Assembly: GCF_015706575.1 (NCBI RefSeq)
Contig: NW_024037073.1
Span: 19,958,740-20,022,739, forward strand
From: Patiria miniata
Lineage: Eukaryota
Reading direction: 5' to 3'
DNA: 64,000 nt
Part shown: positions 7,553-50,472 of the stretch, one piece after another
How the letters are laid out: every line of letters starts with the position of its first letter
How positions within the stretch are numbered: the first letter of the stretch is position 1
The notes under the pieces: generated by a model
Database searches by the model: none
What the model was told of the DNA's origin: nothing
Seen by the model: the letters and a program-made list of their open reading frames with translations, nothing else
Made by a program: the position numbers and the translations under genes

Positions 7553-7644
7553 GTATTCTTCATTTCAATTTTCTAGTCAGATAATTTTGTTGGGGGATTC
7601 ATACTTAGGTTAAGTGAATTAAAAATCACCATTCCTTCAAAATT

Positions 7645-7852
7645 CAAACAAGTTGTACTGGAGTGTGGTTTTTCATGCTTACAGTGTATTGTAGGTATTT
7701 TTGCTATCGAGGATCGCGCACTCTTTGCTTGTACCTGTAGCGTAATGGTGCTATCCACCTCGAAGATCAAAGCCATCTTCTGGCAACTGAATGCCTCGCC
7801 TGCCCTTTCCATGGCAGGGGAAATTAGATTAGCCAGATACATGTGTTATATG
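7645..7852. repeat. about 205-bp repeat, family C; near-identical copy at 11495-11703
   Basis: About 96% identity between the two intronic copies. The ORFs 7573-7842(-) and 11490-11684(-) are only its translation. Confidence 0.7.
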
Positions 7853-9074: not shown

Positions 9075-9520
9075 GTGACTTGGTGGGTTTCATCCACAGA
9101 GTTGTCAAGTCCATGACAAGTTGGTCACAACTTCAATCACAAGTTGGTAACTTTTGAAATCGCAACTAATGTTTTAAGTAGTAGCACTTGAATAATGACT
9201 GAAAATTCAGAATGTCGTAGTCACAGTTCAATTGAAAAGCTTACTACCTCAAGATTAGATGATTTGTGTTGACAGTCGAGTCCATCACAAGTCTGGTACA
9301 AGTAAATCACAAGTCCAGTCACAAGTCCAATCACAAGAAACAGTGGATGAACAATAACAAAGGAATGCCTTTGTCAGAGTTCATTTGAATAGCTTGTGAC
9401 TTGAATTGGGACTTGTGATGGACTTGTGATGGACTTGTGATGGGCTTGTGATGGGCTTGTGATGGGCTTGCGTTGGGCTTGTGATGGGCTTGCAGGTACT
9501 TGTGATGGACTCGACTACAT
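9075..9520. mobile_element. MITE-like family D, with arms built of (CCATCACAAGTC)n / (GACTTGTGATGG)n 12-mers around the core ACAGTGGATGAACAATAACAAAGGAATGCCTTTG
   Basis: Related copies at 20745-21065, 24355-24625 and 58685-58835. Confidence 0.55.
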
Positions 9521-9619
9521 TCCTGTTATCAATAAACATGTCATTGACGTGATGAGGTTTTTAAGACTAGTCCATAGCGCAGGGAAATCACTGATTTCAA
9601 ATTCTTCCTCGGTTCCCAG

Positions 9620-9839: not shown

Positions 9840-10764
9840 GTAGACGTGCACACTGGGATTTTCATAAACTTGGCTGTGTCTGAAACAGCAATTAAAAGCT
9901 ACAGCTGTGTCTATTGTCAGTATGCGCCCGCATAATTGTAATTTCCAAAAACCCAGACAACTGACTTTGTACCAGGCTCATGTGTATGCCAAACATTAGG
10001 TCAAAATTGAGGTGCATATGCATTTCAGGGACCCGGTTGGGGGAGGAGCTTTAGATGAAAGAGTGAGACCTGTGCGTGAGTGTTGTGCGAGCTCAGTAAA
10101 GGCTTTGTTGTTGAGGCCACTAAATACGTTGATATCAAGTTTCAGCTTTTGTAAGAATTCCAAGTGCTTTTACCACATTGTTGAGGCTGTTTGTGCAATT
10201 TAGGTCGTAAAATTGAGTTGATACCTTCTTTCAGCTTGTGGTAGAATTTCAAATATTGACCACATTGTTTATGGGCACATAGTGACCCATGGGTGGTGAC
10301 AACATGAATTACAAGGTTTTACTGAGGACACATTAATGCACATTTAGTTTGGTGCATATACAATGTATAGTTTATTCTGACATTCTCCAATCTTGGTATT
10401 GAACACACTGTTTCAAGCCCAAACTCTATATTTTTAATATTACAAAAAATTTCAAAGTGTCTCTTTAGATCAGAAAATTTGAAAAACAAAAAAAAAATCA
10501 GATAACTTCTAGTGATACCATTCCCCCCCCCCCCCCCCCCCATTTGTTGATGCTCTCAACAACATAGATTGTGTTAATTATGTACAGAGAACTCTTGTCA
10601 CTGGCTCAAGCCCTTGCTTCGGGGTACTTTTTGATGAAAGACTAGGACATATTTGTCACAGATTTTAAAACTGAGTAAATATGTTTTTTACTAACCCAAG
10701 TCCTGCCAAATATGTTTTTAATTGTTCATCACAGGCTTCTTGATTCTTTCCCTCTTGTGTGTAG

Positions 10765-11440: not shown

Positions 11441-11494
11441 AAGTTAACATTTACGAATTTCGTTAAAATTGAAAAATTTTGATAAAGCATTAAG

Positions 11495-11703
11495 TCGTGC
11501 TGGAGTGTGGTTTTTCATGCTTACAGTGCATAGTGGGTATTTTTGCTACCGAGGATCGCGCACTCTTTGCTTGTACCTGTAGCGTAATGGTGCTATCCAC
11601 CTCGAAGATCAAAGCCATCTTCTGGCAACTGAATGCCTCGCCTGCCCTTTCCATGGCAGGGGAAAATAGATTAGCCAGATACATGTGTTATATGCGAGTG
11701 CGG
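11495..11703. repeat. family C copy
   Basis: See 7645-7852. Confidence 0.7.
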
Positions 11704-12168
11704 ATACATGTGTTATATTATCTCTACTGGTATACCCAACTACAAGTTTGTCAGAAAATTAGTTTCTGATTTTTGGACGCATTATAAAAGGGTTCATATA
11801 AAAAAAATAGAATTTCTCTGGAACCTTTGTAGCGGGAAAGTGAAATCAAGATTTATAAACGAGAATGTTTTGTGCTTGATGAAATTTCACTTTCTGTGAA
11901 ATTTAAGGTAAAAAGTTTGCTCTAGCAAGCCCTGGAGGCGAAAAATGAGAGTGTGCCATGTTAGGGGTCGCGCCACGTTGGGGTACATCAACAATATTTT
12001 TGTGGGGAGTACAGTAAATTCTCCAAATGTGTTTGAATGTCTCTCCCAGTGGTCTCCCTTAACTCTCCCTTTGTTACCGTTGAGGGGGTACTTGTGCAAG
12101 TACCCCCTGAGATTCAATAGACTAGCAACATTTTGTTCACATTGGGCGTTGACTTTTTTCGCCTCCAG

Positions 12169-27933: not shown

Positions 27934-28739
27934 GTTAGTAACTGTAAGACCAATGCTTAGATCTGTCAAGCACCCAAATGCACTGATACTAATAAGAGTC
28001 TCCACTTGATTTTTGATCATGGTGTGCATTATTTAGCTATCTTTCTGTGTAAGGAACTTAAAAAAGCAGACCCTGTTCTCACATCATCTCAAAACGGTGA
28101 TATGCCGTATGAAAATTTATCAAAACAGGGGTGACCTTTGTCAATTTTTTCTTCCCGATTTCAGAATTTTTTCCACCTGATTTTAGGATTTTGAAATCAT
28201 CCCTTTTGAAATCTGAAATACCTTCTGTTTTACTGTAAAAGTGTTTTTACTTATAAAAGTTTATGTAAGACAAAAGAAATGGTTTATTTTAAGGGATGTC
28301 TTTAGGCAAACAGAAACATACACCATAGACCCTACATTGCTCCGGGGCCCTTGGCCATCCTCACACCCTCTGCTGATTATTCCATGGATTTTCATTTCCC
28401 CCCAATCTCACACCTGAACAAAAGATCTCACTCAGATAAGAGCTCATTCGTAGAAATACCTGTGGCGCTCTTGTGCCAAAAAAAAGGAATTATAATTCTT
28501 GTCTTTAGTGTCATATAATGTATGCAGGTTACAGTGCCGTGTTTTATCTTGAACACAGCATCGTGATGACATTTAGTTGAGGTCTCTGATCAATCAACGT
28601 GAAGAGACACTGACTACTTTCTGATTTGACTTGCTGTGAATTGGGTCCCAAAGCGCAAACTATTTGACGCCGACAAGGCTTGAAATGAAACTACGCTCTT
28701 TAACATTCATGGTTTGTGGTTTTTCAAATGTTTAATCAG

Positions 28740-31700
28740 GAGCAGATCCAGTTGGCAAAGAAGGAATGGGAACTGGAGCGTCTGCAGGCCCTGAAGGAGG
28801 AGGAGGAACGCAAGGCGGAACAAGAAGAGGACGAGATCTTCTTTACCTACTGTGATGAGGAAGCTAAAAATAAGGTGCATAAGAGTAGATCTAAGTCTAG
28901 GCAGACCCAGGGTGGTAGCTCGCGGGCCGGCAGCCAGAAAAGTAGTCGGGCAAGCAGCCGCTCAGGTAGCGCAGAGCGACCAAAGCGTAACCCTCCGGCT
29001 AGTACCGGACGCAGCACGCGGCGCAATCCAAAACCAGATCCCGCGGCAGACGATTCGGGTCCGAGGTCACCTGTAACGAGATCAGGTGCCACCAAGTCCC
29101 CGCCCCCTCCCACAACTGCAGTCCTCTCACCAAGATCCCCCTTGGCCCGGTTAGCTCCAACCAAACCATCTGCCAAGAAAACAGGGTCTGCAAAATCACC
29201 TCCTGAGAAGACGGACACTGCCAAGTCCAAGCAGAAGTCAAAAGGACAGAAGTCCAGTATGCCTAAAGAGCCAGAGAGTAAGCAGAGCTCAGAATCAGCA
29301 GTAAGGCAGCTTGGAGAAGAAACGTCACGCAGCTGTAGTTCACCCATGGATCTATCTGTCGGTGGTCCTAATGCCACAGTGTCAGCAACAACACCAATGG
29401 ACTTGTCCATGAGCCCTAGAAAAGACAACAAGCAACAGGAGGTCATGGTCAAACACACACCAACAAGTGTTACCAGTGAGCCATCAAGCAACCCCACTGT
29501 GACTACATCCCCACCTAATAGCTTCAATGTCCAGCCGCTAAACCTATCTCCTCGATCCAAGCAGCCCCAACACCCAACGAATTCTGACTTGCCTCCTATG
29601 CCTGGCTTGGTATCCAGCTTGACAGGTAGTGGTAGTCCTCCTCCACCCAATCCAAATCTCCCCTCCATTCCTCTACTGCTTCCAAGGCATCCGCTGTCAT
29701 CTCATTACTCGTCTACTCCTACCGTGCTGACAGAGACTCCCTCAATCCGGGCCTCTAATCCCAACAGCCATCCTAGTTCAACTTCATCTAGTCTAGAGTC
29801 TATTCTCCAACGAAATCTGAATGTGGTTGTTTCGTCAGCAACTGGTGTACAGTCACTAACCGCTGCCCAGCTTCTTTCGCTGGGCATGTCCCGACCAAAC
29901 TTGAGCCCCCTGCAGCTTGTGCAGCCTGATACTCCCGGGATTCCACCACGGTTTGGTTTGCCCACTCAATCTCAGATGCTCCGCAATCCTCCACCTTTAC
30001 AGCCAATGCCGCATCAACAACATCTTCGTCCACAAGCACAGCATGCTACATTGCTTCAGCAGCAATATCGGCTACAAGTTCAACAGCAACAGTCGCAGGT
30101 GGCAGCTGCATCCTCACATCAGATGTCATCATCACCCCAGCCACAGCCACAGTCCCAATCACAAATGCCAGTCTTGGCACGCCTCCAGATGCTCACTCAA
30201 CCCAGAATGGCTTCTCCGTCTCAGACCCCTACTCTCCGTCTTTCTCTGTCAAGACCACAGCTGCAAATGGCCCAGAGGCAGTTGCTAGCACACCAGCAGA
30301 TTCTAGGGGCAGCCCGTCTACGTTCATCATCCATCATGCAATCTCAGCCAAGGCAACAGGGTCAGCCAATTTTGGCTCGTCTAGAAGTCTTGCCAGTAAG
30401 GCAACCTCAGTTACAGAGCAGAGGCAGCTCTGAGCTCCTGACCGGTTTACAGTTAGCTGATTCAAGGACAGCAGTGGCTCGACAAAAGGTACCACTGCAG
30501 CGAATGCCACACCCTGTTCGGATACAGGCTCCAGTGATAAATCCCCAGATTTTGTTACAGTTGCAGTCCCAATCCCAGACCAAGTTGCAGTCCCAGACCC
30601 AGCCACAGTCCAGGCCACAAACCATAGCACAAGCTTTAGCCCAGACTCTGGCCCCACAGAATTTCCCGGCTCCAACACACCTGCCATCTACATCTCAAGG
30701 CCCGTCTCAGACACCAGTTTCGATTTCTGTTGTCCCCGTGTCTCACCAGCACACGGCCCAGCCCCAGCACCAGCCCCAGACAGCAGTACAAACCACTCAG
30801 GATGCCCCTGTCAATATGCCAACACCCAGTCAGCACCAAAGCACCACTAACGGTGTCAAACAGTTGCTCACGCTGACAGTTCCAGATGCAACTGTACCTC
30901 GTGGTGCCCCAGTTGAAAAGCTGGCACCTACCCTCACCAAAGCATCACCCCAGGCAGCACAAGGTTCATTAATAAGCACACAATCAGACAGGGAAACATT
31001 AACAAATGCACCAGCTCAACAGTCTCCAAGTACAGTGTCTAAGGTTGCAACTGATTCCCAAAGGACAAGTGTGTCAGAAACGCTTCCAAATCTATCGGAC
31101 ATCCAGATTTCAACCCATGCAGAAGCGGCCAGTTCTGCCTTGAGTCCACCCCAACTTACTCCTCAGCCTCGTGTAGATGCATCACAGTCGGGTGAATCAC
31201 AGATCCAGTCACTATCCCAATCTTGGACTGAATCAGAGTCAGTGTCGCAGATGTCACCACCCTCCCTTGCAGTGTCAGGGCAGATTGCTTCTGTCGCCCG
31301 AGCAGACTCTTGTCCACAATCCTCAAATCAGACTCTTCCTATTCACCAGGAATCGTGTACCCTGATGAAGCAAGTGGACGCTGCCACATCATTGGATTCA
31401 GAACAGATACTTACAGCTGCTTTGTCTCAATTGAAACAAAAGGAGGAAGGTGCGAGTGATAACACACCAAAAGAAAGTGCAATTCCTCAAATTTCATTTC
31501 CTGACCTGAGTACCTCCCCATCTCAACTCTCAACACCTGCCAATCAGTCCAAACCAACTCCCCTGTCCTTCCCCCAGAGGATATCCCCACACCCGACACA
31601 CTCGCCCCCTTCTACACAATCCTCTCCGAATTCTCAGTCCCCGCCTCTGCCAAAATCACCAGCCCTGTCTTGCTCCCCAGAGCCGCTTGACCTCTCACCG

Positions 31701-32693
31701 CAGCACCATAAAGTCAGTCCTCTGAAGGAGGCAGTGAGACGTTCATCACAACATGACTCCACATCCAGGTCTGGTACAGCTCGTAACACCGAGAGGTGCA
31801 TATTTGACCTTTCCCTCTCGAGTTCAAGTGCCCGTCCTGATGCAGTGCATTCATCAAGCAGCCAACCAGAGCAAAAGGATGGGCGTATTTCACTCCCCAA
31901 GCAAGATACAAATCAAGTGGAAGCTCACCTTACCTCAAGAATGCATCTGAACGCAGAGTCTGTACAGAATTCCACGACGGCAAAATCACCCGAGCCTGAT
32001 GGCAGAGAGGAAAGCCACGAGCAGCGGAACATATTCCAAGTGCTCTCCTCCTTAATGAGATCACCCCCACCTGCCTCCCCAGCTCTGCCGCTTTCACCAT
32101 CGGAGGTCGTCTCGCCTTCTTCGGCTTCTCCAGTCCCCGTGCCATTTGATCTGACCATTCCTAAATCTCCCCAGCCGTCCAAAACAATAGCGGCCCAGCA
32201 ACACAAAAATTACCAGTCCGAATTAGATAACGTTGCTGCAGCAAACTCTGATGGCTTGTCTCAGTCATCGACCTCTGTTAGAAATTTTGCGCAAGGCGCA
32301 TCTAATGACACATCCTCCCCCAATGCGGCCACCGAAGCGCCGTCGTCACCGGAGCTAGCCAAGGCTGCCTTGGCTAAGAAACTGGCCAAGATCCAGCTGT
32401 CCAGCGTGGACGACGGTAGGGAAAGCACAGGGCCCCGGACCCGAGCGATGAGCGGCGCTGAATTGGCAGATAAGCTCATCCAGACGCGATCGCGTAGCCG
32501 GCACCATTCAGCCAGCCCTGCGCTAACCCACAGGGACTTGAAAGGTTTGTCCAGGGCTAGCTCAAGGAGCAGCTCTGCCACCAACTCAAGGGATGTCTCA
32601 CCCGCGAGGGGTGGGACGCCAACGGCCACAGATAAAAATGTAGTGGTGAAACGGGGGAGGGGGCGCCCTAGAAAGTACCCAGAGCGCAGTTGA
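28740..32693 (+). CDS. SRCAP/EP400-like: SRCAP-type long terminal exon: EQIQLAKKEWELERLQALKEEEERK…, then about 1250 aa of S/P/Q-rich low complexity, ending in an AT-hook (KRGRGRPRKYPERS) and a stop. The first 135 nt (28740-28874) are also the upstream part of the EP400-type isoform, via the internal donor AAG|GTGCAT
   Basis: Uninterrupted 1325-codon ORF (28716-32693). Acceptor tgtttaatcag|. The start resembles EP400 WEFWNLKTLQEREARLRLEQEEAELLTYT. The GRP-core AT-hook at the C-terminus is typical of SRCAP. Confidence 0.85.
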   Translation, partial: EQIQLAKKEWELERLQALKEEEERKAEQEEDEIFFTYCDEEAKNKVHKSRSKSRQTQGGSSRAGSQKSSRASSRSGSAERPKRNPPASTGRSTRRNPKPDPAADDSGPRSPVTRSGATKSPPPPTTAVLSPRSPLARLAPTKPSAKKTGSAKSPPEKTDTAKSKQKSKGQKSSMPKEPESKQSSESAVRQLGEETSRSCSSPMDLSVGGPNATVSATTPMDLSMSPRKDNKQQEVMVKHTPTSVTSEPSSNPTVTTSPPNSFNVQPLNLSPRSKQPQHPTNSDLPPMPGLVSSLTGSGSPPPPNPNLPSIPLLLPRHPLSSHYSSTPTVLTETPSIRASNPNSHPSSTSSSLESILQRNLNVVVSSATGVQSLTAAQLLSLGMSRPNLSPLQLVQPDTPGIPPRFGLPTQSQMLRNPPPLQPMPHQQHLRPQAQHATLLQQQYRLQVQQQQSQVAAASSHQMSSSPQPQPQSQSQMPVLARLQMLTQPRMASPSQTPTLRLSLSRPQLQMAQRQLLAHQQILGAARLRSSSIMQSQPRQQGQPILARLEVLPVRQPQLQSRGSSELLTGLQLADSRTAVARQKVPLQRMPHPVRIQAPVINPQILLQLQSQSQTKLQSQTQPQSRPQTIAQALAQTLAPQNFPAPTHLPSTSQGPSQTPVSISVVPVSHQHTAQPQHQPQTAVQTTQDAPVNMPTPSQHQSTTNGVKQLLTLTVPDATVPRGAPVEKLAPTLTKASPQAAQGSLISTQSDRETLTNAPAQQSPSTVSKVATDSQRTSVSETLPNLSDIQISTHAEAASSALSPPQLTPQPRVDASQSGESQIQSLSQSWTESESVSQMSPPSLAVSGQIASVARADSCPQSSNQTLPIHQESCTLMKQVDAATSLDSEQILTAALSQLKQKEEGASDNTPKESAIPQISFPDLSTSPSQLSTPANQSKPTPLSFPQRISPHPTHSPPSTQSSPNSQSPPLPKSPALSCSPEPLDLSPQHHKVSPLKEAVRRSSQHDSTSRSGTARNTERCIFDLSLSSSSARPDAVHSSSSQPEQKDGRISLPKQDTNQVEAHLTSRMHLNAESVQNSTTAKSPEPDGREESHEQRNIFQVLSSLMRSPPPASPALPLSPSEVVSPSSASPVPVPFDLTIPKSPQPSKTIAAQQHKNYQSELDNVAAANSDGLSQSSTSVRNFAQGASNDTSSPNAATEAPSSPELAKAALAKKLAKIQLSSVDDGRESTGPRTRAMSGAELADKLIQTRSRSRHHSASPALTHRDLKGLSRASSRSSSATNSRDVSPARGGTPTATDKNVVVKRGRGRPRKYPERS

Positions 32694-33810
32694 CAAACAC
32701 TGAGGTAACAACCAATGCAGTTCATTTAAGTTAATTTGTAAAAGACACGGCGATGGTTATGTGCAAGAAACTAGTTTTACTCACTGACCAAAGATGTGTG
32801 TATTTAAAGATTTCTTGGTAGGAAAAGTTCTGAGATGTGTCGCAGCAGAGCTGATAAAATCGTTACTTGCAAGGAACGCACTCAAAGCTTTAGTTCCTGC
32901 AGATGTTTAATTTATATTTCAGTGCTTTTGATGTACTTTAAGGGCTGTTTAGTTTCTCTTGATGTCTGGTTATTACCCATAAGAGGCATCATCGATAGGA
33001 ACAATACGATGTTGTGATAGATTGCCAAATAATAGCCAGGTATTATTTGATATGACATACCGATATCACATTCTTAGTGCTTTGTACTTTTTTTTCAGAG
33101 TACCTCTTAAATTCCTTTTTACACTGTGCCATTTGAAAATTTGCAAATCTGTGGTCCCTTTTCTATGACACACAACCTGGAGAAGAATTGTGAATTTTTG
33201 TATTTATTTTGTATTGTATTTATCAATTCTCTTGAAACCAAGTGTAAGTGGTATACTAATTGAACCACGTGACTTCCCCCCCCCCCCCAAAAAAAACCCC
33301 TCAAACCGTATCAACTTTTGTAACTTGACAAGCACAGATAGATTCTGTTTTTATTGTTCCCCGGTTTTCAAATTTGTTGTTTTGCCTTGATTTGAAATGT
33401 TGCTCATCAGTACATTTAGATTAAGTTACACTCACACGTGGTTTACCAAAGCACGGTCAATTTTTTGGAAAGTGAAGCAGGCCAGTTAAGTAAAAATTGG
33501 AAAGTTTTTTTTTTTAAAGACCAGCCTTCATCACAAGTCAAGCATAGCTGCCGCTTTTGGGGTCATTCTCTGTTTGTGTGTGTTCGGTAAAGTAAGAATC
33601 GATGTTAATAATTTGCCGACAAGTGAAAAGAAAATGACCAAGTTAAATTAATTCCTAGAATTTTAAGCTAAAGTCATCAGTTGGGATGGGGCTTGATTTC
33701 TAGGGCACCATTAGATTTATTGAGCAAGATTAATTTGTTATTTCGCAGAATGTGTTTCCCTGTATTTTTGTATTGATAAGCAAGAAAAGATGATGTTGAA
33801 GAATGGGATC

Positions 33811-33816
33811 AATAAA
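33811..33816 (+). promoter_or_regulatory. candidate poly(A) signal AATAAA for the SRCAP-type isoform (about 1.1 kb 3' of the stop at 32693)
   Basis: First canonical AATAAA downstream of the stop codon in an AT-rich UTR-like region. Weak. Confidence 0.3.
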
Positions 33817-34759
33817 TGAAAGATTTATGTTCGAGAAAAGAAAAAGAAAAGTTTCTGTCTTTACTTCCTTTGGTTTTATGCTCTGAGTTTGGCCAGGCTA
33901 AGTAAGAAAAAAAATAAAATCAAGAAAAACGTGAGAACAAAACAGAAAAAAGATGAATCGGAACAAAACCAAAAATTATGTACAAAGATCGTTTGATACA
34001 GTTGCCAAGCATACTTCACAGATGCCGCCCACAAAAAAAATGTACCCTGGCCCAAAATTATGCTATCTCTCTCCAAATTGGTGACAAACAGTGCACTTTT
34101 GGCAGGTTCACAGATGCCAAACCCAACCATTCTGCAAATTGTTTGATATTTTGTGGCCAAAATTTGAAGAAGAAAATTATTGTTTGCCTGTGCCATTCTG
34201 AGCAACCATTAGAAACCATTGGAGGTAGAGATGAGCTTTTGGGCCAGGGAAGGGTGCTCACTAGGGGAACACTTGAAACGCGTACAGATATGCCATAATT
34301 CGTGCCAACCTGAACATTCATAGAGGAATTCTAAAATTTTCTACTCTGGAAAAAGGAGTTCAAAATTGAACAGAGTAAGGCATGGTTCATACCTGACAAG
34401 GAAAGCCAAGCGATCTTCAGTAGAGGAGAATACGAAATTAAACAGGCGGTTATTTGAGGTTTTATCAAGGTTTTACGATGATTTACGGGGAACCTTGGGG
34501 TTAAACCGCGGGGTTAATTTTGCATTTTCTCCCATATTTTAACAATGTTCTCTTCGTTGTGATGCTCGCTGTTGCCTCAACACATTTGCTTCACTCTTTT
34601 CATGTCAAGTATGAACCAAAACTAAATCATCAGGAATATTTTTACTGAACGTTGCTTGGATGAAAATATCAAGAATTAGGACCTGATAAATTGGCAAAGT
34701 CAGAATTAGGAAAATCTGTAAACGGGCATTTTCGAAAGGACAGTATCAGTACAGTACAA

Positions 34760-35465
34760 GGTGAGGGAAAAACAAAGAAGACCCAAATGGCAGGACCATT
34801 TCCTTAATAAAGTTCTGCATGTCGCACTTTCAAAATCTAGGATATAAAAGCCCAATTAATAAGCTTTCTTTTAGTACAAAATTCATTCAAATCACCCATG
34901 TACTTCTCAAGCTACGGAATTTTGAACACAACCACAGTTTTATAGTTCTGTCCACAGATCACAAAAAAAGGTATTTTCTTTCAGCAAAATGAAAACAATT
35001 TACATGTGCCCTATGTGAATTGTTTTCGTTTTGCCGAAAGAACGTACCTTTTTTGGTGATCTGTGGACAGAACTTTGAAATGGTGGTTGTGTTTAAAACT
35101 CCGTAACTAGAAATGTGTTTGTGATTTGAATGATTCTTGTACTAAAAAGAAAGATTATTAATCCCAACTCCCCAGCCTAATTTACTAGGAACCATACCCA
35201 TTCTGGCAAATTCAAACACCAACATGGGAAATAATACACACACACTTTTGGACTTAGTTTCTGGAGGTATGCCAACCCCAGAGTAAAAGACCATCAGTTT
35301 AGGAGTACTGTACCTATCCCAACAGATTTAAACAAAACCTGCTGTTTAACTTTGATGGGTTGAGTTCGGTTAGGGTTAATTGGGCTTTCATATCCTAGAT
35401 ATTGATAGTGCTACATGCAGAACTTCACTCAAAAATTGGTCCTGCCATTTGGGTTTCATTGTTTT
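34760..35465. repeat. about 700-bp foldback / long inverted repeat (centre near 35010)
   Basis: 34780-34860 is the reverse complement of 35375-35455. 34855-34925 is the reverse complement of 35100-35165. 34925-35010 is the reverse complement of 35010-35100. Confidence 0.65.
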
Positions 35466-35574
35466 TCTACTCACCCTGTATGTATAACTTAAACCAAAAA
35501 CAATTGGGCCACTAAAACATAGTTTGGTACAGCGGTCATTCTTCATAGCGATTTTAGGCTGTAAATGAATATTA

Positions 35575-36060
35575 CATAAAATTGGGGATGTTGGTTATGG
35601 GCTCCCTGCCCGAACAAGAAGGGGCACTTTTTGACCACTTTCGAGAGTCTCGTGGACGGGACACTACGTGCGCATAGTGGTTCGCATGCGTGTGGTGCGA
35701 AGTACGCGTGACTAATTTTTTTCTAAGTAAGTTTTGAATTTTTGCATGGTGGTTGTGTAAATTAGTGAAGGTTTTCGGTAACACCATGTGGAATAATCTC
35801 TTTCGAGAAGATGTCACCCACAGGAACCAACCGGTTCTTTTCAGAGCCACACATCTTCCCAAAAGAGATTTCCACATGGTGTTACCGCTAACCTTCACTA
35901 GTTAATTTTATTTGCTTTATACACAATGCCAAAGCGTTTTTGCATGAGCATCAGGCGTCAGTGGTAATGCGTTGGAATGTCTCCCAGTGGTCTTCCCCAA
36001 CTCTCCCTTTCTTACCAATGAGGGGGTACTTGTGCCGGAGCCCATAGCAGAATGTTTGGC
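35575..36060. repeat. dispersed repeat family F (motif TGTCTCTCCCAGTGGTCTCCC…GAGGGGGTACTTGTGC; internal hairpin 35740-35900). Other copies or fragments at 11885-12180, 22425-22810, 42070-42350 and 50495-50640
   Basis: Shared 20-60-nt blocks among the five loci. Confidence 0.5.
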
Positions 36061-37220
36061 ATATCGGTGTTTGTCATAGGGACGTTCTACTTTAACACTT
36101 TCAGTAAAAGTACAATTTTCGAGTCAAGAGCACTAAACAGAGTGTGCACAGTCAGAGAAAATATCCACTCCCAAAATCTAAGAATTACATTTGAAACACA
36201 CACATTTCAAGAGCTTTCCAGTGAAATAGGGGGAAAAAAACCTGTATGGGTGCATAGAATTTTTTTTGCAGAGATTAGAAAAAGAGCTGTGATGTGAATT
36301 CGGAGAAACAGAACCACATTTCCTAAATATTTAAGTTGGTATCCTTTTGAGAAAGATGAAGAGTGGGCATATGATTTTGCTAACTTACCTCAAAACCAAA
36401 CTTTGTAGTTAATGTAGTCTCATTTATATAGAAATTTGGTAAATACTTTGAATCATGAAATCTGAAAATTAACATGGAAGTTCTGCAAGAAAACATAAAT
36501 TATTCCAAGGTTCAAACATTGTTCAGTTAACTCATCCGGGTACATGTACTTTAAACTTGAGTGTCCTTTCAAGGTCAGTTTTAAACCCCCAGCACTGCTC
36601 AGAGGTAACTGTGTGGAAAAAAAAATATCATTTTGGGGCGAGCACTCTTAGGTGTACTTGTAACCAGTGATTGTGACATCGCTACTGACAAAATGGGGTA
36701 CGTTTAAGAAGGAACCTGAAGGGGTGTAGCTACGTAGTGAAATGTGGGTCATTCTATACATTCAGGGTCCAAATTGTGACCTCCTTCCTGTCCCTTTTAC
36801 CTTGGTACTTTGTAATCTACCTTTCAAGTATCATTAAGAATTACTTCAAATGATGTACTTGTTGGGTAGGTGGTTTGTTATTCATAATCACTCTTGGAGG
36901 GCGACTGCATTAAGGAGTGCATCAGAATTATAAAATCATAAATGTCAGATGTAACAGGGACAGGGACAACAAGTGGACCCCAAATTGATAGAATGCCCAC
37001 ATGCGCAATGCAACACAACACCATGCAATACAACGTCAACAAACTCTCAGATATAATCATGTTGAATCTAAGGGCTAGAAGAAGGAGGAAAAGCTATGCA
37101 TGTTCATTGTTTATTCCTTGGAAGATTGAGTGATGTTCCAAGACGGATGAACCTGAGAGTTGACGTGCATAATCTCGTACTCAAATTATTGTGGATGCCT
37201 TGTTTGTTTTCTCCCTGTAG

Positions 37221-37253
37221 GTGTACATTTCCAACAAAGATGACATCATGCCG
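37221..37253 (+). CDS. SRCAP/EP400-like: EP400/Domino-A-type isoform micro-exon (VYISNKDDIMP)
   Basis: Strong acceptor ttttctccctgtag| and donor CCG|GTAAGT. 33 nt, phase 0/0. Resembles EP400 YVYEDVDGQTEVMP, which directly precedes the LWTPPTPP motif. Confidence 0.6.
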
Positions 37254-38050
37254 GTAAGTTGTAGACGAGTGTTTTTACCATCTGTGATTTTTGCTTGAAA
37301 ACAAGGAAACCAGCCGAATTACTACATGTAGTTCATGTTTTTATTTTGGAGGGGGGTGGGCCTCGGCCTAAAAAAAAAGAAGAAGTTTAATTCACGTACA
37401 GTGAAGTGTTGAGCGCCAACATTTGACATAGTTTTTATAAAAGAAGATTAAACATCTTGTGAGTATCGCCCTGAAATGGAAATGAACTCATGTATTGGTC
37501 CATGTCCTAAGCAGTACCGCAAAAAGTCAACTTTAAGTCCATTCAGTTCAAAACTTGACAAAAATAGGCTGAATATCTCGAGTAAATTCATGGGTTGAAA
37601 TTTTTTTTTTTTAACCTAACTTCCTACTTACTTTTACCAAGTAAAGGACAATGTCCACCAATATCCATCACTCACTCTGCTTCACATACATGACATAATG
37701 AAATCCACCACTAAAGTGCTGGTGGATTTTGATGGAATGGCTTGCAGTACTGGATGCTAGGCAAAGTTCATCAAATTCACCCAGCACTGCTTCAGGCCTC
37801 CTGGCCAAAGTCCATCATACTCCATCACATTTTAGTCAAACCATGCCAACTGGACCATGTCCCCCAAAATCCACCTAAAATGGGGGTGATGGGGTTGGTA
37901 AGGTAAGGATTAATGTACAAAAAAAAGTGTGAAGTCTTAAGCATAATTTGAAAGTACAGAACATATTCTCAGCCAAACGTCTATTACATGTATGCATCAA
38001 CCCTTGAGGGCCCCAAATCTCATGCCACCACCTACTTTCTATTTTTCAAG

Positions 38051-38201
38051 ATCTGGGCTCCGCCCACCCCACCCCAGGATGAAAATGACGTCTACGTGGA
38101 CCTCTCAGCCAGCCTCATGTATGACACCTCCATCATGATGGAGTCCAAACTGCCTCCCGTCTACGTCAAGAAAGAACACAAGAAGACCAAAGTGGAACAA
38201 G
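38051..38201 (+). CDS. SRCAP/EP400-like: EP400-type exon (IWAPPTPPQDENDVYVDLSASLMYDTSIMMESKLPPVYVKKEHKKTKVEQ)
   Basis: Matches EP400 LWTPPTPPQDDSDIYLDSVMCLMYEATPIPEAKLPPVYVRKERKRHK. Acceptor ttttcaag|. Donor G|GTATTG. Confidence 0.85.
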
Positions 38202-39070: not shown

Positions 39071-39336
39071 GTATCCGCAAGATCAAGCCCCACACCAAGT
39101 CAGGCGAGGTGCCGCACCACACGGCGCACATCATGACCCCACCCCAGTCCCTCTTCAACCGCCCCTCGGCGGCCCTCCTGCGCATGCGACGCGAGGCCAA
39201 GCAGCAGAAGCTACGCGCCATGGCCGGCAAGCCCGTGGTCAAGCCGTTGCCCATAGTGCACCGGACTACCTCCACGGACATGCAGACGGCCGATCGGCAC
39301 GAGTGGCTGATCAACGAGGATTGGGCATTGCTGCAG
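39071..39336 (+). CDS. SRCAP/EP400-like: EP400-type exon leading into the SANT domain (…SLFNRPSAALLRMRREAKQQK…DRHEWLINEDWALLQ)
   Basis: Matches EP400 RSLFDRATPGLLKIRREGKEQKK…NPEWLISEDWALLQ. Donor CAG|GTATGC. Confidence 0.9.
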
Positions 39337-39947: not shown

Positions 39948-40175
39948 GCTGTACAAGCTCTTCAGGAGCTCCCCCTCACCCTCCAGGCCGTCGTACCGGG
40001 CCACGTCATCAACTGGGACCTGGTTAGTGACATTGTCAACGGCACCAGTCGCATCTACCGCTCCCCCAAGCAGTGCCGCCACCGCTACGAGAACGTCATC
40101 ATACCACGGGAGGAGGGCAAGATACTCTATGACACCAACCCCAAGAAACAGAAGAAATCCAAGGGCATATACAGG
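39948..40175 (+). CDS. SRCAP/EP400-like: EP400-type SANT/Myb exon (AVQALQELPLTLQAVVPGHVINWDLVSDIVNGTSRIYRSPKQCRHRYENVIIPREEGK…)
   Basis: Matches EP400 AVKQLLELPLNLTIVSPAHTPNWDLVSDVVNSCSRIYRSSKQCRNRYENVIIPREEGK. Confidence 0.92.
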
Positions 40176-41125
40176 GTAAGGCTTGACTCCGTGATTCAAA
40201 CTCTCTGCCCCTCTCAGTAAGGCAAGATACTCTATGACACCTACCCCAAGAAACAGAAGAAATCTAAGGGCATACACAGGGTAAGGCTTGACTTCATGTT
40301 CCACACCATGAACCTTCTTGTTCCAGCTAATATTTTTTACACAGAATTTGATAACTCTGAAAGTATTTTTTTAAAAACCAGTGCCAGCTGTGAATGGAAA
40401 TTAATACTGCAGTTTATTTTGGACACTTGTTACTTGTTAGTAATAAGCCTCTTTACTGATGACGTCACACTTTGTTCACGTGTGTGCTTTCCTATGGTGC
40501 TCAGTGGACCTTGGGCCCCCACTGGCTCCATAGGAAAGTGCACATGTAAACAAAGTGTGACGTCATCAGCACAGAGGCTTATTGCTACTATGGACACCTT
40601 GCAAAAGTACGCCCCGCACAAGTTTTACAGAGAGATAGTTACAAATGACCTAACCGCATGCTGTAGTAGGTGCAGGGCTCGTATGTAGACACTGTGGGTT
40701 AATGATCATTCAGAATAGATTAATAATATACAAATATTGAGTGGCTCAGATTGGAATGGGAGGAATATTATCGCAAGGTAAATTCTAGACTTTAGCTGAG
40801 TGAAGTGGAAAAGTCCAGATTTTACCGAGTGATAATATTCCTCCCATTTCCCAATTTAAAGCCACTTGTTTTATATAACTGACATGTAGATGCTTGTCAT
40901 TTGATTTACAGTTAAAATGAACTTCTATTGCAATACAAAATTGGTGGAAAATGTATTTCTCTCTTTCAAACCACCCCTTCACAGAATGTTTGAACCCTAC
41001 TCTGTAGCTACTGGCTCTTGGGAACAATATGCGTTCAACAAGCACACCAGCATGCATTTACACACAAATACCACATTTTTATATTCTAAATCTTCAAACT
41101 CAGTCTCTTGAATTTCACTCCTTAG

Positions 41126-50385: not shown

Positions 50386-50472
50386 AAAATCACTCGGGTG
50401 GGACTCGAACCCACGACCTGCTTTCTAGTGCAGAAGTCTTACCGCTCAACTACCGAGCTTGCCGGGTCGGCT
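50386..50472 (-). mobile_element. tRNA-like element / tRNA-derived SINE head
   Basis: On the minus strand: T-arm GTGGG-TTCGAGT-CCCAC, acceptor 3' strand CCGAGTG, a discriminator, then a TTTTT pol III terminator, with a 10-bp hairpin (CCCGAGTGAT…ATCACTCGGG) immediately 3'. The D and anticodon arms do not fold canonically. Confidence 0.4.

Follow-up and report, generated by a model that had tools for sequence, protein, structure and literature searches.

In Drosophila, the single gene domino encodes two proteins, DOM-A and DOM-B, whose first 2008 residues are the same and whose remaining parts differ through alternative splicing: DOM-A carries a SANT domain and a Gln-rich tail and organises a complex of the NuA4/TIP60 type, and DOM-B organises the SWR1-type exchanger of H2A.V (PMC7239659; bioRxiv 052746). 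Two C-termini have also been noted in other insects and in a spider (PMC7239659), and vertebrate gene duplication and fly splicing have been presented as two different ways of reaching the same end (PMC7239659; bioRxiv 052746). Here we describe a locus of this kind in 64,000 nucleotides of DNA from Patiria miniata (contig NW_024037073.1, positions 19,958,740 to 20,022,739 of the forward strand), referred to as the window, with coordinates counted from its first letter. With a probability of about 0.85 for the explanation as a whole, that is for the gene, its composite terminal exon and its two fates taken jointly, the window holds most of one large Domino-type gene that encodes an SRCAP-like ATPase of the SWR1 class and has two alternative 3′ ends. 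This is another instance of the DOM-A/DOM-B system, resolved to the nucleotide.

In domino and, by prediction, in the window, one SWR1-type ATPase gene gives isoforms with a common N-terminus and ATPase, beyond which the A form has an EP400-like tail with SANT and Gln-rich regions and the B form, the SRCAP-equivalent, has a tail that is shorter or unstructured. Unlike in Drosophila, the B-type tail predicted in the window is much longer (1272 amino acids) and has an AT-hook-like end. The point at which the two window forms part probably corresponds to the split after residue 2008 of the fly proteins; indirect support comes from a DOM-A epitope and from the layout of the insect-like locus L011, both described below. 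The N-lobe of the ATPase, assembled from window exons defined by homology, matched human SRCAP best (PDB 6igm_H, 626 bits), followed by yeast Swr1 (470 bits) and human EP400 (347 bits). Since the N-lobe scores highest against SRCAP and the tail is of the EP400 type, one gene joins an SRCAP-type motor to an EP400-type tail.

The spliced form has a counterpart in Mytilus trossulus, where the RefSeq protein ‘helicase domino-like isoform X5’ (XP_063395971.1) is colinear with window positions 651–42049 but skips 28887–38050. Together with a Mytilus sequence named ‘E1A-binding protein p400’ (VDI33321.1), it shows the same junction and the same overall order as the window, with about 54% identity in the tail region and a C-terminus (…SPYAMRTRNQPKHQ) that is like that of the window (…SPYAMRLRKPSNPSKE). 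The Gln-rich exons of the window extend to about 54.4 kb. Judged by pairwise identity, the window lineage joins neither the arthropod, the mollusc/annelid nor the vertebrate group, with 49–56% identity to each as against 59–88% among members within those groups. The closest protein match in the collection searched (86% over one exon) came from a marine metagenome.

The first-pass annotation of this DNA had placed a phase-0 donor at 28875, inside a giant exon, and had taken it as the point at which the isoforms part. On the plus strand, the sequence at 28.7–28.9 kb reads ...tttaatcag/GAGCAG...AAAAATAAG/GTGCATAAGAGT... (slashes mark splice boundaries), with the exon starting at 28740. When every GT/AG pair compatible with the frame and with the peptides on either side was enumerated, the join from 28874 to 37221 was the sole solution, and the same enumeration gave a solution without inserted residues for the join from 37253 to 38051; the coordinates and the phase of the donor are thereby borne out. 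The GT of the donor doubles as the first two bases of Val codon 46 in the read-through form. Orthologous genomic loci were recovered from public assemblies through open reading frame fragments, and the comparison with one of them (L004) enters the following description of the region.

28740 to 28874, plus strand: exon segment present in both predicted isoforms, 135 nucleotides or 45 codons (EQIQLAKKEWELERLQALKEEEERKAEQEEDEIFFTYCDEEAKNK), with the acceptor at 28739/28740 and the frame assigned by homology.
28872 to 28880, plus strand: switch 5′ splice site AAG/GTGCAT, with its GT at 28875–28876 and the last exon base at 28874, phase 0.
28864 to 28894, plus strand: 31-nucleotide block spanning the donor (CTAAAAATAAGGTGCATAAGAGTAGATCTAA), identical in L004 and the longest exact match in the alignment of the giant exon, which covers about 4 kb.

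The shared segment is 87% identical to its counterpart in L004 and about 60% identical to those in L005 and L008, and it also aligns with human EP400 and with Mytilus domino-like X5. In L004, L005/L006 and L008, the exon begins at the same acceptor and a GTG follows after exactly 45 codons, as codon 46 in phase 0, in the contexts AAG/GTGCAT (twice) and CAG/GTGAAG (once). The compact arthropod-like loci have CAG/GTTAAG (L007) and CAG/GTCAGC (L011) at the equivalent position, where a GT is also found in a 2.2-kb contig (L014) and in the EP400 locus of a bird (L013), both described below. The GT was kept at the same codon or the equivalent place in all of the orthologous loci fetched. In a scan of 1.84 billion cluster representatives, Val (and hence GTN) occupied the donor position in 11 of the 11 read-through sequences that were read.

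Between the window and L004, synonymous sites of the giant exon are saturated (proportion of synonymous differences, pS, 0.73–0.85). The 31-nucleotide block is a candidate splice-regulatory element under synonymous constraint, as judged from this alignment, and a regulator may bind the conserved 31 nucleotides around the donor. Because the GT recurs at the same codon across loci and the 31-nucleotide match is exact in spite of saturation, the donor, although unremarkable as a motif, is conserved beyond chance. The second-longest exact nucleotide match with L004 in the giant exon, at 29010–29033 (24 nucleotides), encodes RSTRRNPK, a possible nuclear localisation signal or other element under constraint.

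The giant exon contains other donor-like sites, and it could be proposed that the switch lies at one of them (last exon base 29300, 30098 or 30395, all in phase 0), in which case the A form would keep part of the tail. These three sites score 5.0–6.4 bits, like the switch donor, and the GT at 30098 is kept in L004. Those at 29300 and 30395, however, are not conserved in L004; every spliced homologue changes sequence exactly after the equivalent of K45 (N-Q/V or N-K/V), and EP400 has no insert at that point. We regard this alternative as highly improbable, and rejected the three sites as the switch on the grounds that two are unconserved in L004 and that the homologues diverge after K45.

The strength of the donor at 28875 was assessed with an approximate 5′ splice-site weight matrix, which serves ranking purposes only. 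On this matrix, the switch donor scored 5.5 bits, as compared with 12.6 for the consensus, and ranked 12th among the 16 donors of the gene fixed by homology; a score at least this high is reached by 5.7% of all window GTs. Read from the sequence, its pairing with U1 would cover positions −2 to +3 and +6, with mismatches at +4 and +5. The orthologous switch donors are likewise non-consensus (3.7–8.0 bits), and L011 writes Val-Ser as GTC AGC, not as GTA AGT. The first-pass annotation had read the departure from consensus as consistent with regulated choice: the departure itself holds, but four constitutive donors of the same gene score lower still. RNA folding of 90 nucleotides around the donor in four species gave stabilities no greater than those of shuffled sequences (z from +1.5 to −0.2). 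At 28843–28879 and in the equivalent segments of L004 and L008, the minimum-energy fold pairs (C/U)ACCU, which forms the Thr-Tyr codons of FFTY about 25 nucleotides upstream of the donor and resembles the 5′ end of U1, with AGGUG of the donor; the z-scores of this recurrent five-base-pair pairing are non-significant.

Beyond the donor, the frame that opens at 28740 runs for 1317 codons in total, 1272 of them past the splice site. Its features are as follows.

28875 to 32693, plus strand: read-through coding extension of 1272 codons followed by TGA at 32691–32693.
32649 to 32681, plus strand: AT-hook-like motif KRGRGRPRKYP, three residues before the stop, with both the motif and its distance from the stop conserved in L004.
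32694 to 33816, plus strand: predicted 3′ untranslated region (UTR) of the read-through form, about 1.1 kb, ending at AATAAA (33811–33816).
33756 to 33899, plus strand: conserved poly(A)-site context, from blastn and alignment with L004.

In composition, the translated tail is basic and Ser-rich initially and then rich in Pro, Ser and Gln. The L004 orthologue of the read-through product (P0010) matched it with E = 1.5e-144, in islands of identity along the whole length, and the C-terminus and stop are conserved, the window ending in KRGRGRPRKYPERS and L004 in KRGRGRPRKHPVPS, each followed by the stop codon. In the comparison with L004, the proportion of nonsynonymous differences (pN) is 0.38 as against a pS of 0.73, and several blocks of 60 codons have a ratio of nonsynonymous to synonymous rates (dN/dS) of 0.05–0.25. 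Judging by these comparisons, the read-through frame is under purifying selection. Frames past the donor are also open for 865 codons in L005, 235 in L008, about 195 in L007 and about 540 in L011; overall, read-through frames of 195–1320 codons were found in five further species, and at least 30 residues past the donor aligned in 30 of 41 cluster representatives. Downstream of the stop, the window and L004 have in common the poly(A)-signal context AATGGGAT(C/G)AATAAA at a similar distance from the stop codon, with a TGTA-rich block upstream (33756–33777) and, downstream, a T/GT-rich block (33851–33864) and a further conserved block (33878–33899). The layout around 33811 is that of a predicted poly(A) site.

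These data bear on the possibility that the donor is constitutive, that 28875–37220 is an ordinary intron, and that the long open frame within it is an untranslated relic or an accident. Bird EP400 does use the homologous donor without a read-through frame, a stop following after four codons, and no transcript of P. miniata shows read-through. On the other hand, a run of 1272 sense codons would arise at this base composition with a probability of about 1e-33; purifying selection is indicated, with the C-terminus and stop kept in L004 although synonymous sites are saturated; conservation extends to the poly(A) signal; read-through frames are open in six lineages; and a read-through mRNA with its upstream introns removed is represented by L014. 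A constitutive donor is exceedingly unlikely in the light of this evidence.

B-type tails otherwise evolve fast, with conserved motifs that are specific to lineages (seen in L005, P0099, P0102, P0107 and P0122, and in L007 and L011). The mollusc-like group carries WSNPNLVIRTRRA and the arthropod-like loci SPRTRSRG.V.I.LWTLD; the window and L004 share GPRTRA.SGAELAD, which may be related to the tail motifs of the other groups.

If the donor is used, the transcript would instead pass into exons of the EP400 type.

28875 to 37220, plus strand: intron of the EP400-type form, 8.3 kb, defined by the junction analysis, with the entire read-through tail inside it, together with the stop and the poly(A) site of that tail.
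37221 to 37253, plus strand: micro-exon VYISNKDDIMP, 33 nucleotides, phase 0 at both ends, with acceptor ttgtttgttttctccctgtag and donor CCG/GTAAGT (10.8 bits).
38051 to 38201, plus strand: first large EP400-type exon, which begins IWAPPTPPQDEND and contains IWAPPTPPQDENDVYVD...LPPVYVKKEHKKTKVEQ.
39104 to 39336, plus strand: EP400-type exon (…PPQSLFNRPSAALLRMRRE…HEWLINEDWALLQ).
39948 to 40175, plus strand: SANT/Myb-like exon (…NWDLVSDIVNGTSRIYRSPKQCRHRYENVIIPREEGKILYDTNPKKQKKSKGIYR), with 50–70% identity to EP400 and domino homologues.

Strong splice signals had been attributed to the 33-nucleotide micro-exon, in agreement with its acceptor tract and with a GTAAGT donor that stands well above the switch donor on the same matrix. 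Orthologous micro-exons of 36 nucleotides, flanked by AG and by GTAAGT or GTAGGT and ending in MP, were found in L009 and L010 (VFLSDIDNEEMP), L007 (MWVSMDGLEEMP) and L011 (VWVSDNTMEQMP). The claim that splicing restores the EP400 order was upheld as well: the joined peptide of shared exon, micro-exon and 38051 exon aligned with residues 2151–2294 of human EP400 (E = 4e-20) without a break, and matched nothing else in the PDB sequence set. The spliced product of the window is thus colinear with human EP400 (PDB 8qr1_A and others) across both junctions. By our own comparison, the epitope of a Drosophila antibody specific for DOM-A, KEHKRSRTDAGYDGSRRPN (KEHKRSR...), resembles the LPPVYVKKEHKK... 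stretch of the 38051 exon, and an epitope-like stretch, LPPVYVKKE(H/N)K..., occurs both in this exon and in the insect-like sequence P0023.

The Pfam match of the SANT exon (Myb_DNA-bind_6, 20.8 bits) lies under the cut-off of 22.9. The 3′ end of this exon (…EEGKILYDTNPKKQKKSKGIY) and its donor AGG/GTAAGG are included in a 105-bp tandem duplication (40111–40201 and 40216–40306, 89% identity), whose second copy is intronic and shares the frame of the first, from which a stop separates it. In the mollusc-like locus L010, a partial copy of the beginning of the SANT exon lies about 570 bp before the exon itself (9513–9593 versus 10079–10303).

The junctions also speak to the idea of two adjacent transcription units, an SRCAP-like gene that ends at about 33.8 kb and a set of SANT and Gln-rich exons with a promoter of their own, encoding an Eaf1-like protein that lacks an ATPase. 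Such a protein has a precedent in yeast, where Eaf1 is an HSA-SANT protein that stands alone (PMC7239659). Acceptors and no start context, however, are seen at the micro-exon and at the 38051 exon, and it is exactly by this junction that both the Mytilus RefSeq model and two assembled sequences of the spliced type (L001 and L002) connect the SANT tail with helicase exons. In bird EP400, moreover, the shared exon sits 123 nucleotides upstream of the micro-exon, and with two units the phase-0 match at all three junctions would be a coincidence. Two units are accordingly very unlikely, and we return to a single gene with two 3′ ends.

Both of the mRNA types that a single gene would produce are represented in other species, although, among the sequences compared, never both within one species. 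The read-through mRNA type is represented by L014, a JGI contig of 2.2 kb, which has the helicase-C exons without introns and continues across CAG/GTTAAG into a basic tail of 77 residues, followed by a stop codon and a 3′ UTR. The spliced type is represented by L001/L002 (Logan SRR4183539/40), which read ...DDAYNQ/VFLSDIDQEKMP/MW.PPTPP, and by Mytilus X5, in which the junction is ...EDAFNQ/VFKSDVDQEKMT/MWTPPTPP. In L001 and L002, which are two independent run assemblies, two frame shifts occur at identical places, one of the shifts being a missing G in ATGTGG(G)CACC. Taken together with the conserved donor, the micro-exon and the selected read-through frame, these sequences of both types support the donor as the divergence point of the isoforms.

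The anatomy of the locus is that of a 5-kb composite terminal exon, with an internal donor, a stop and a predicted poly(A) site before the next acceptor. If the donor went unused, the transcript would continue through 1272 codons and the AT-hook-like motif to the stop at 32691 and would be cleaved near 33811–33835; use of this poly(A) site, about 4.9 kb past the donor, would yield a Domino-B/SRCAP-like protein. If U1 engaged the donor, splicing to 37221–37253 and then to 38051 would remove the tail, the stop and the poly(A) site as the 8.3-kb intron, and the frame would run on into the SANT and Gln-rich exons (to about 54.4 kb) to give a Domino-A/EP400-like protein. The isoform ratio would be set by how recognition of the sub-optimal donor competes with cleavage at the poly(A) site lying upstream of the acceptor. 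Because transcription reaches this poly(A) site earlier than the acceptor of the micro-exon, the outcome should hinge on the efficiency with which the donor is recognised, and it seems reasonable to suggest a kinetic competition between splicing and cleavage. The choice would therefore be one of splicing versus polyadenylation and would go beyond the choice of a 5′ splice site alone; the first-pass annotation had left the read-through form unnamed.

Composite terminal exons and switches by intronic polyadenylation have a classic case in the secreted and membrane mRNAs of immunoglobulin mu. In such exons, a stop and a poly(A) site come after an internal, sub-optimal 5′ splice site, and the poly(A) site is either lost by splicing or, when splicing fails, cleaved. 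The window is predicted to share this layout; the likeness is a mechanistic analogy only, without homology. Both paths are probably used in P. miniata, as far as the sequence comparisons can indicate.

Several points weigh against this reading. With regard to the donor, 17 other GTs in the giant exon lie within 0.5 bit of the switch donor or above it, and the motif is statistically indistinct from other GTs there; its weakness alone is no evidence of regulation, several constitutive donors of the same gene being weaker, and regulation through donor weakness is putative. With regard to the tail, the single KRGRGRPRK motif reaches 12.8 bits with Pfam AT_hook, under the cut-off of 17.4, and the read-through tail had no match (E ≤ 1) to any PDB sequence, full-length SRCAP included. 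Because there is no sequence match and the AT-hook is sub-threshold, the description of the tail as SRCAP-like rests on its position and composition. On both tails, Pfam gave sub-threshold AT_hook and Myb/SANT matches alone. With regard to transcripts, the sequence of P. miniata itself was absent from the protein collection searched, and we infer the use of either path in this species, the transcript-type sequences coming from other species only. Finally, L001/L002 could be a processed retrocopy, an assembly artefact or an unproductive variant in place of an mRNA; even a retrocopy, however, would still record a spliced mRNA.

Elsewhere in the window, the stretches at 7577–7852 and 11494–11766, and others at about 12.0 kb and 42.2 kb, are repeated intronic elements with near-identical pseudo-open reading frames (VVLECGFSCLQCIVGIFA…; …ECLSQWSP(L/P)TLP…), and they are probably interspersed repeats of this genome. 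On the minus strand, a transfer RNA (tRNA)-like element at 50390–50459 adjoins the end of a Gln-rich exon. It was the only match in an Rfam scan of the window (tRNA, 36 bits) and is irrelevant to the switch donor; ARAGORN assigned it an undetermined two-base anticodon, and it is probably a short interspersed nuclear element (SINE) or a pseudo-tRNA.

How widely the architecture is shared can be gauged from the related loci. The insect-like L011 and the arthropod-like L007 share the layout of the window: ...NQ precedes an in-frame GT and a read-through frame, and these are followed by a micro-exon of 36 nucleotides ending in MP and by (M/I)WCPPTPP. In the mollusc-like group, the read-through frame is present in the genomic locus L005. 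In the EP400 gene of the lyrebird Menura novaehollandiae (GCA_013396355.1, L013, 9621–10153), the homologous donor reads …REDAYNK/GTAATT (AAA/GTAATT), and a micro-exon of 45 nucleotides, EYVYEGPDGQTEIMP (…IMP), precedes LWTPPTPP. The B-type tail is absent there: a stop falls four codons past the donor, in an intron of 123 nucleotides. Vertebrate EP400 further differs from the window in its diverged ATPase (347 versus 626 bits, as above) and in lacking the ILYDTNPKKQKKSKGIY segment after the SANT domain.

In SRCAP, the C-terminal region is long and of low complexity, with AT-hooks. Its likeness to the read-through tail of the window is architectural only, with no detectable sequence similarity.

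These related loci suggest, on sequence grounds, that the switch may be of ancient origin among animals. We tentatively propose, at somewhat less than even odds, that the composite exon was present in the last bilaterian ancestor, with its in-frame donor following …N(Q/K), its B tail and its micro-exon that ends in …MP, that SRCAP and EP400 are its isoforms partitioned after duplication, and that the 31-nucleotide block is an ancient site for a factor that sets the SWR1:NuA4 ratio. EP400 would then have lost the tail while retaining the donor and the micro-exon, and the tail would have survived in SRCAP. This proposal contrasts with the framing of the Drosophila literature in terms of different or convergent routes. 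A literature search, with one relevant review lying outside it, found no publication that presents SRCAP and EP400 as the products of isoform partitioning.

In flies, the SWR1-type remodeller that exchanges H2A.Z (DOM-B) and the NuA4/TIP60 scaffold (DOM-A) come from the same gene, and because they do so, the choice of isoform sets the balance of two chromatin activities. The locus described here pins this choice to one nucleotide position and to a defined architecture of donor, tail, poly(A) site and micro-exon. The same arrangement is seen in arthropod-like genomes, in mollusc-like ones and in the third lineage represented by the window, and bird EP400 keeps the splice half only. For annotation, the gene needs two 3′ ends, since a single model drops either the 1272-residue tail or the SANT and poly-Q tail. 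The 31-nucleotide block offers a concrete target in the search for a regulator, and the origin of SRCAP and EP400 becomes testable as the partitioning of isoforms after duplication.

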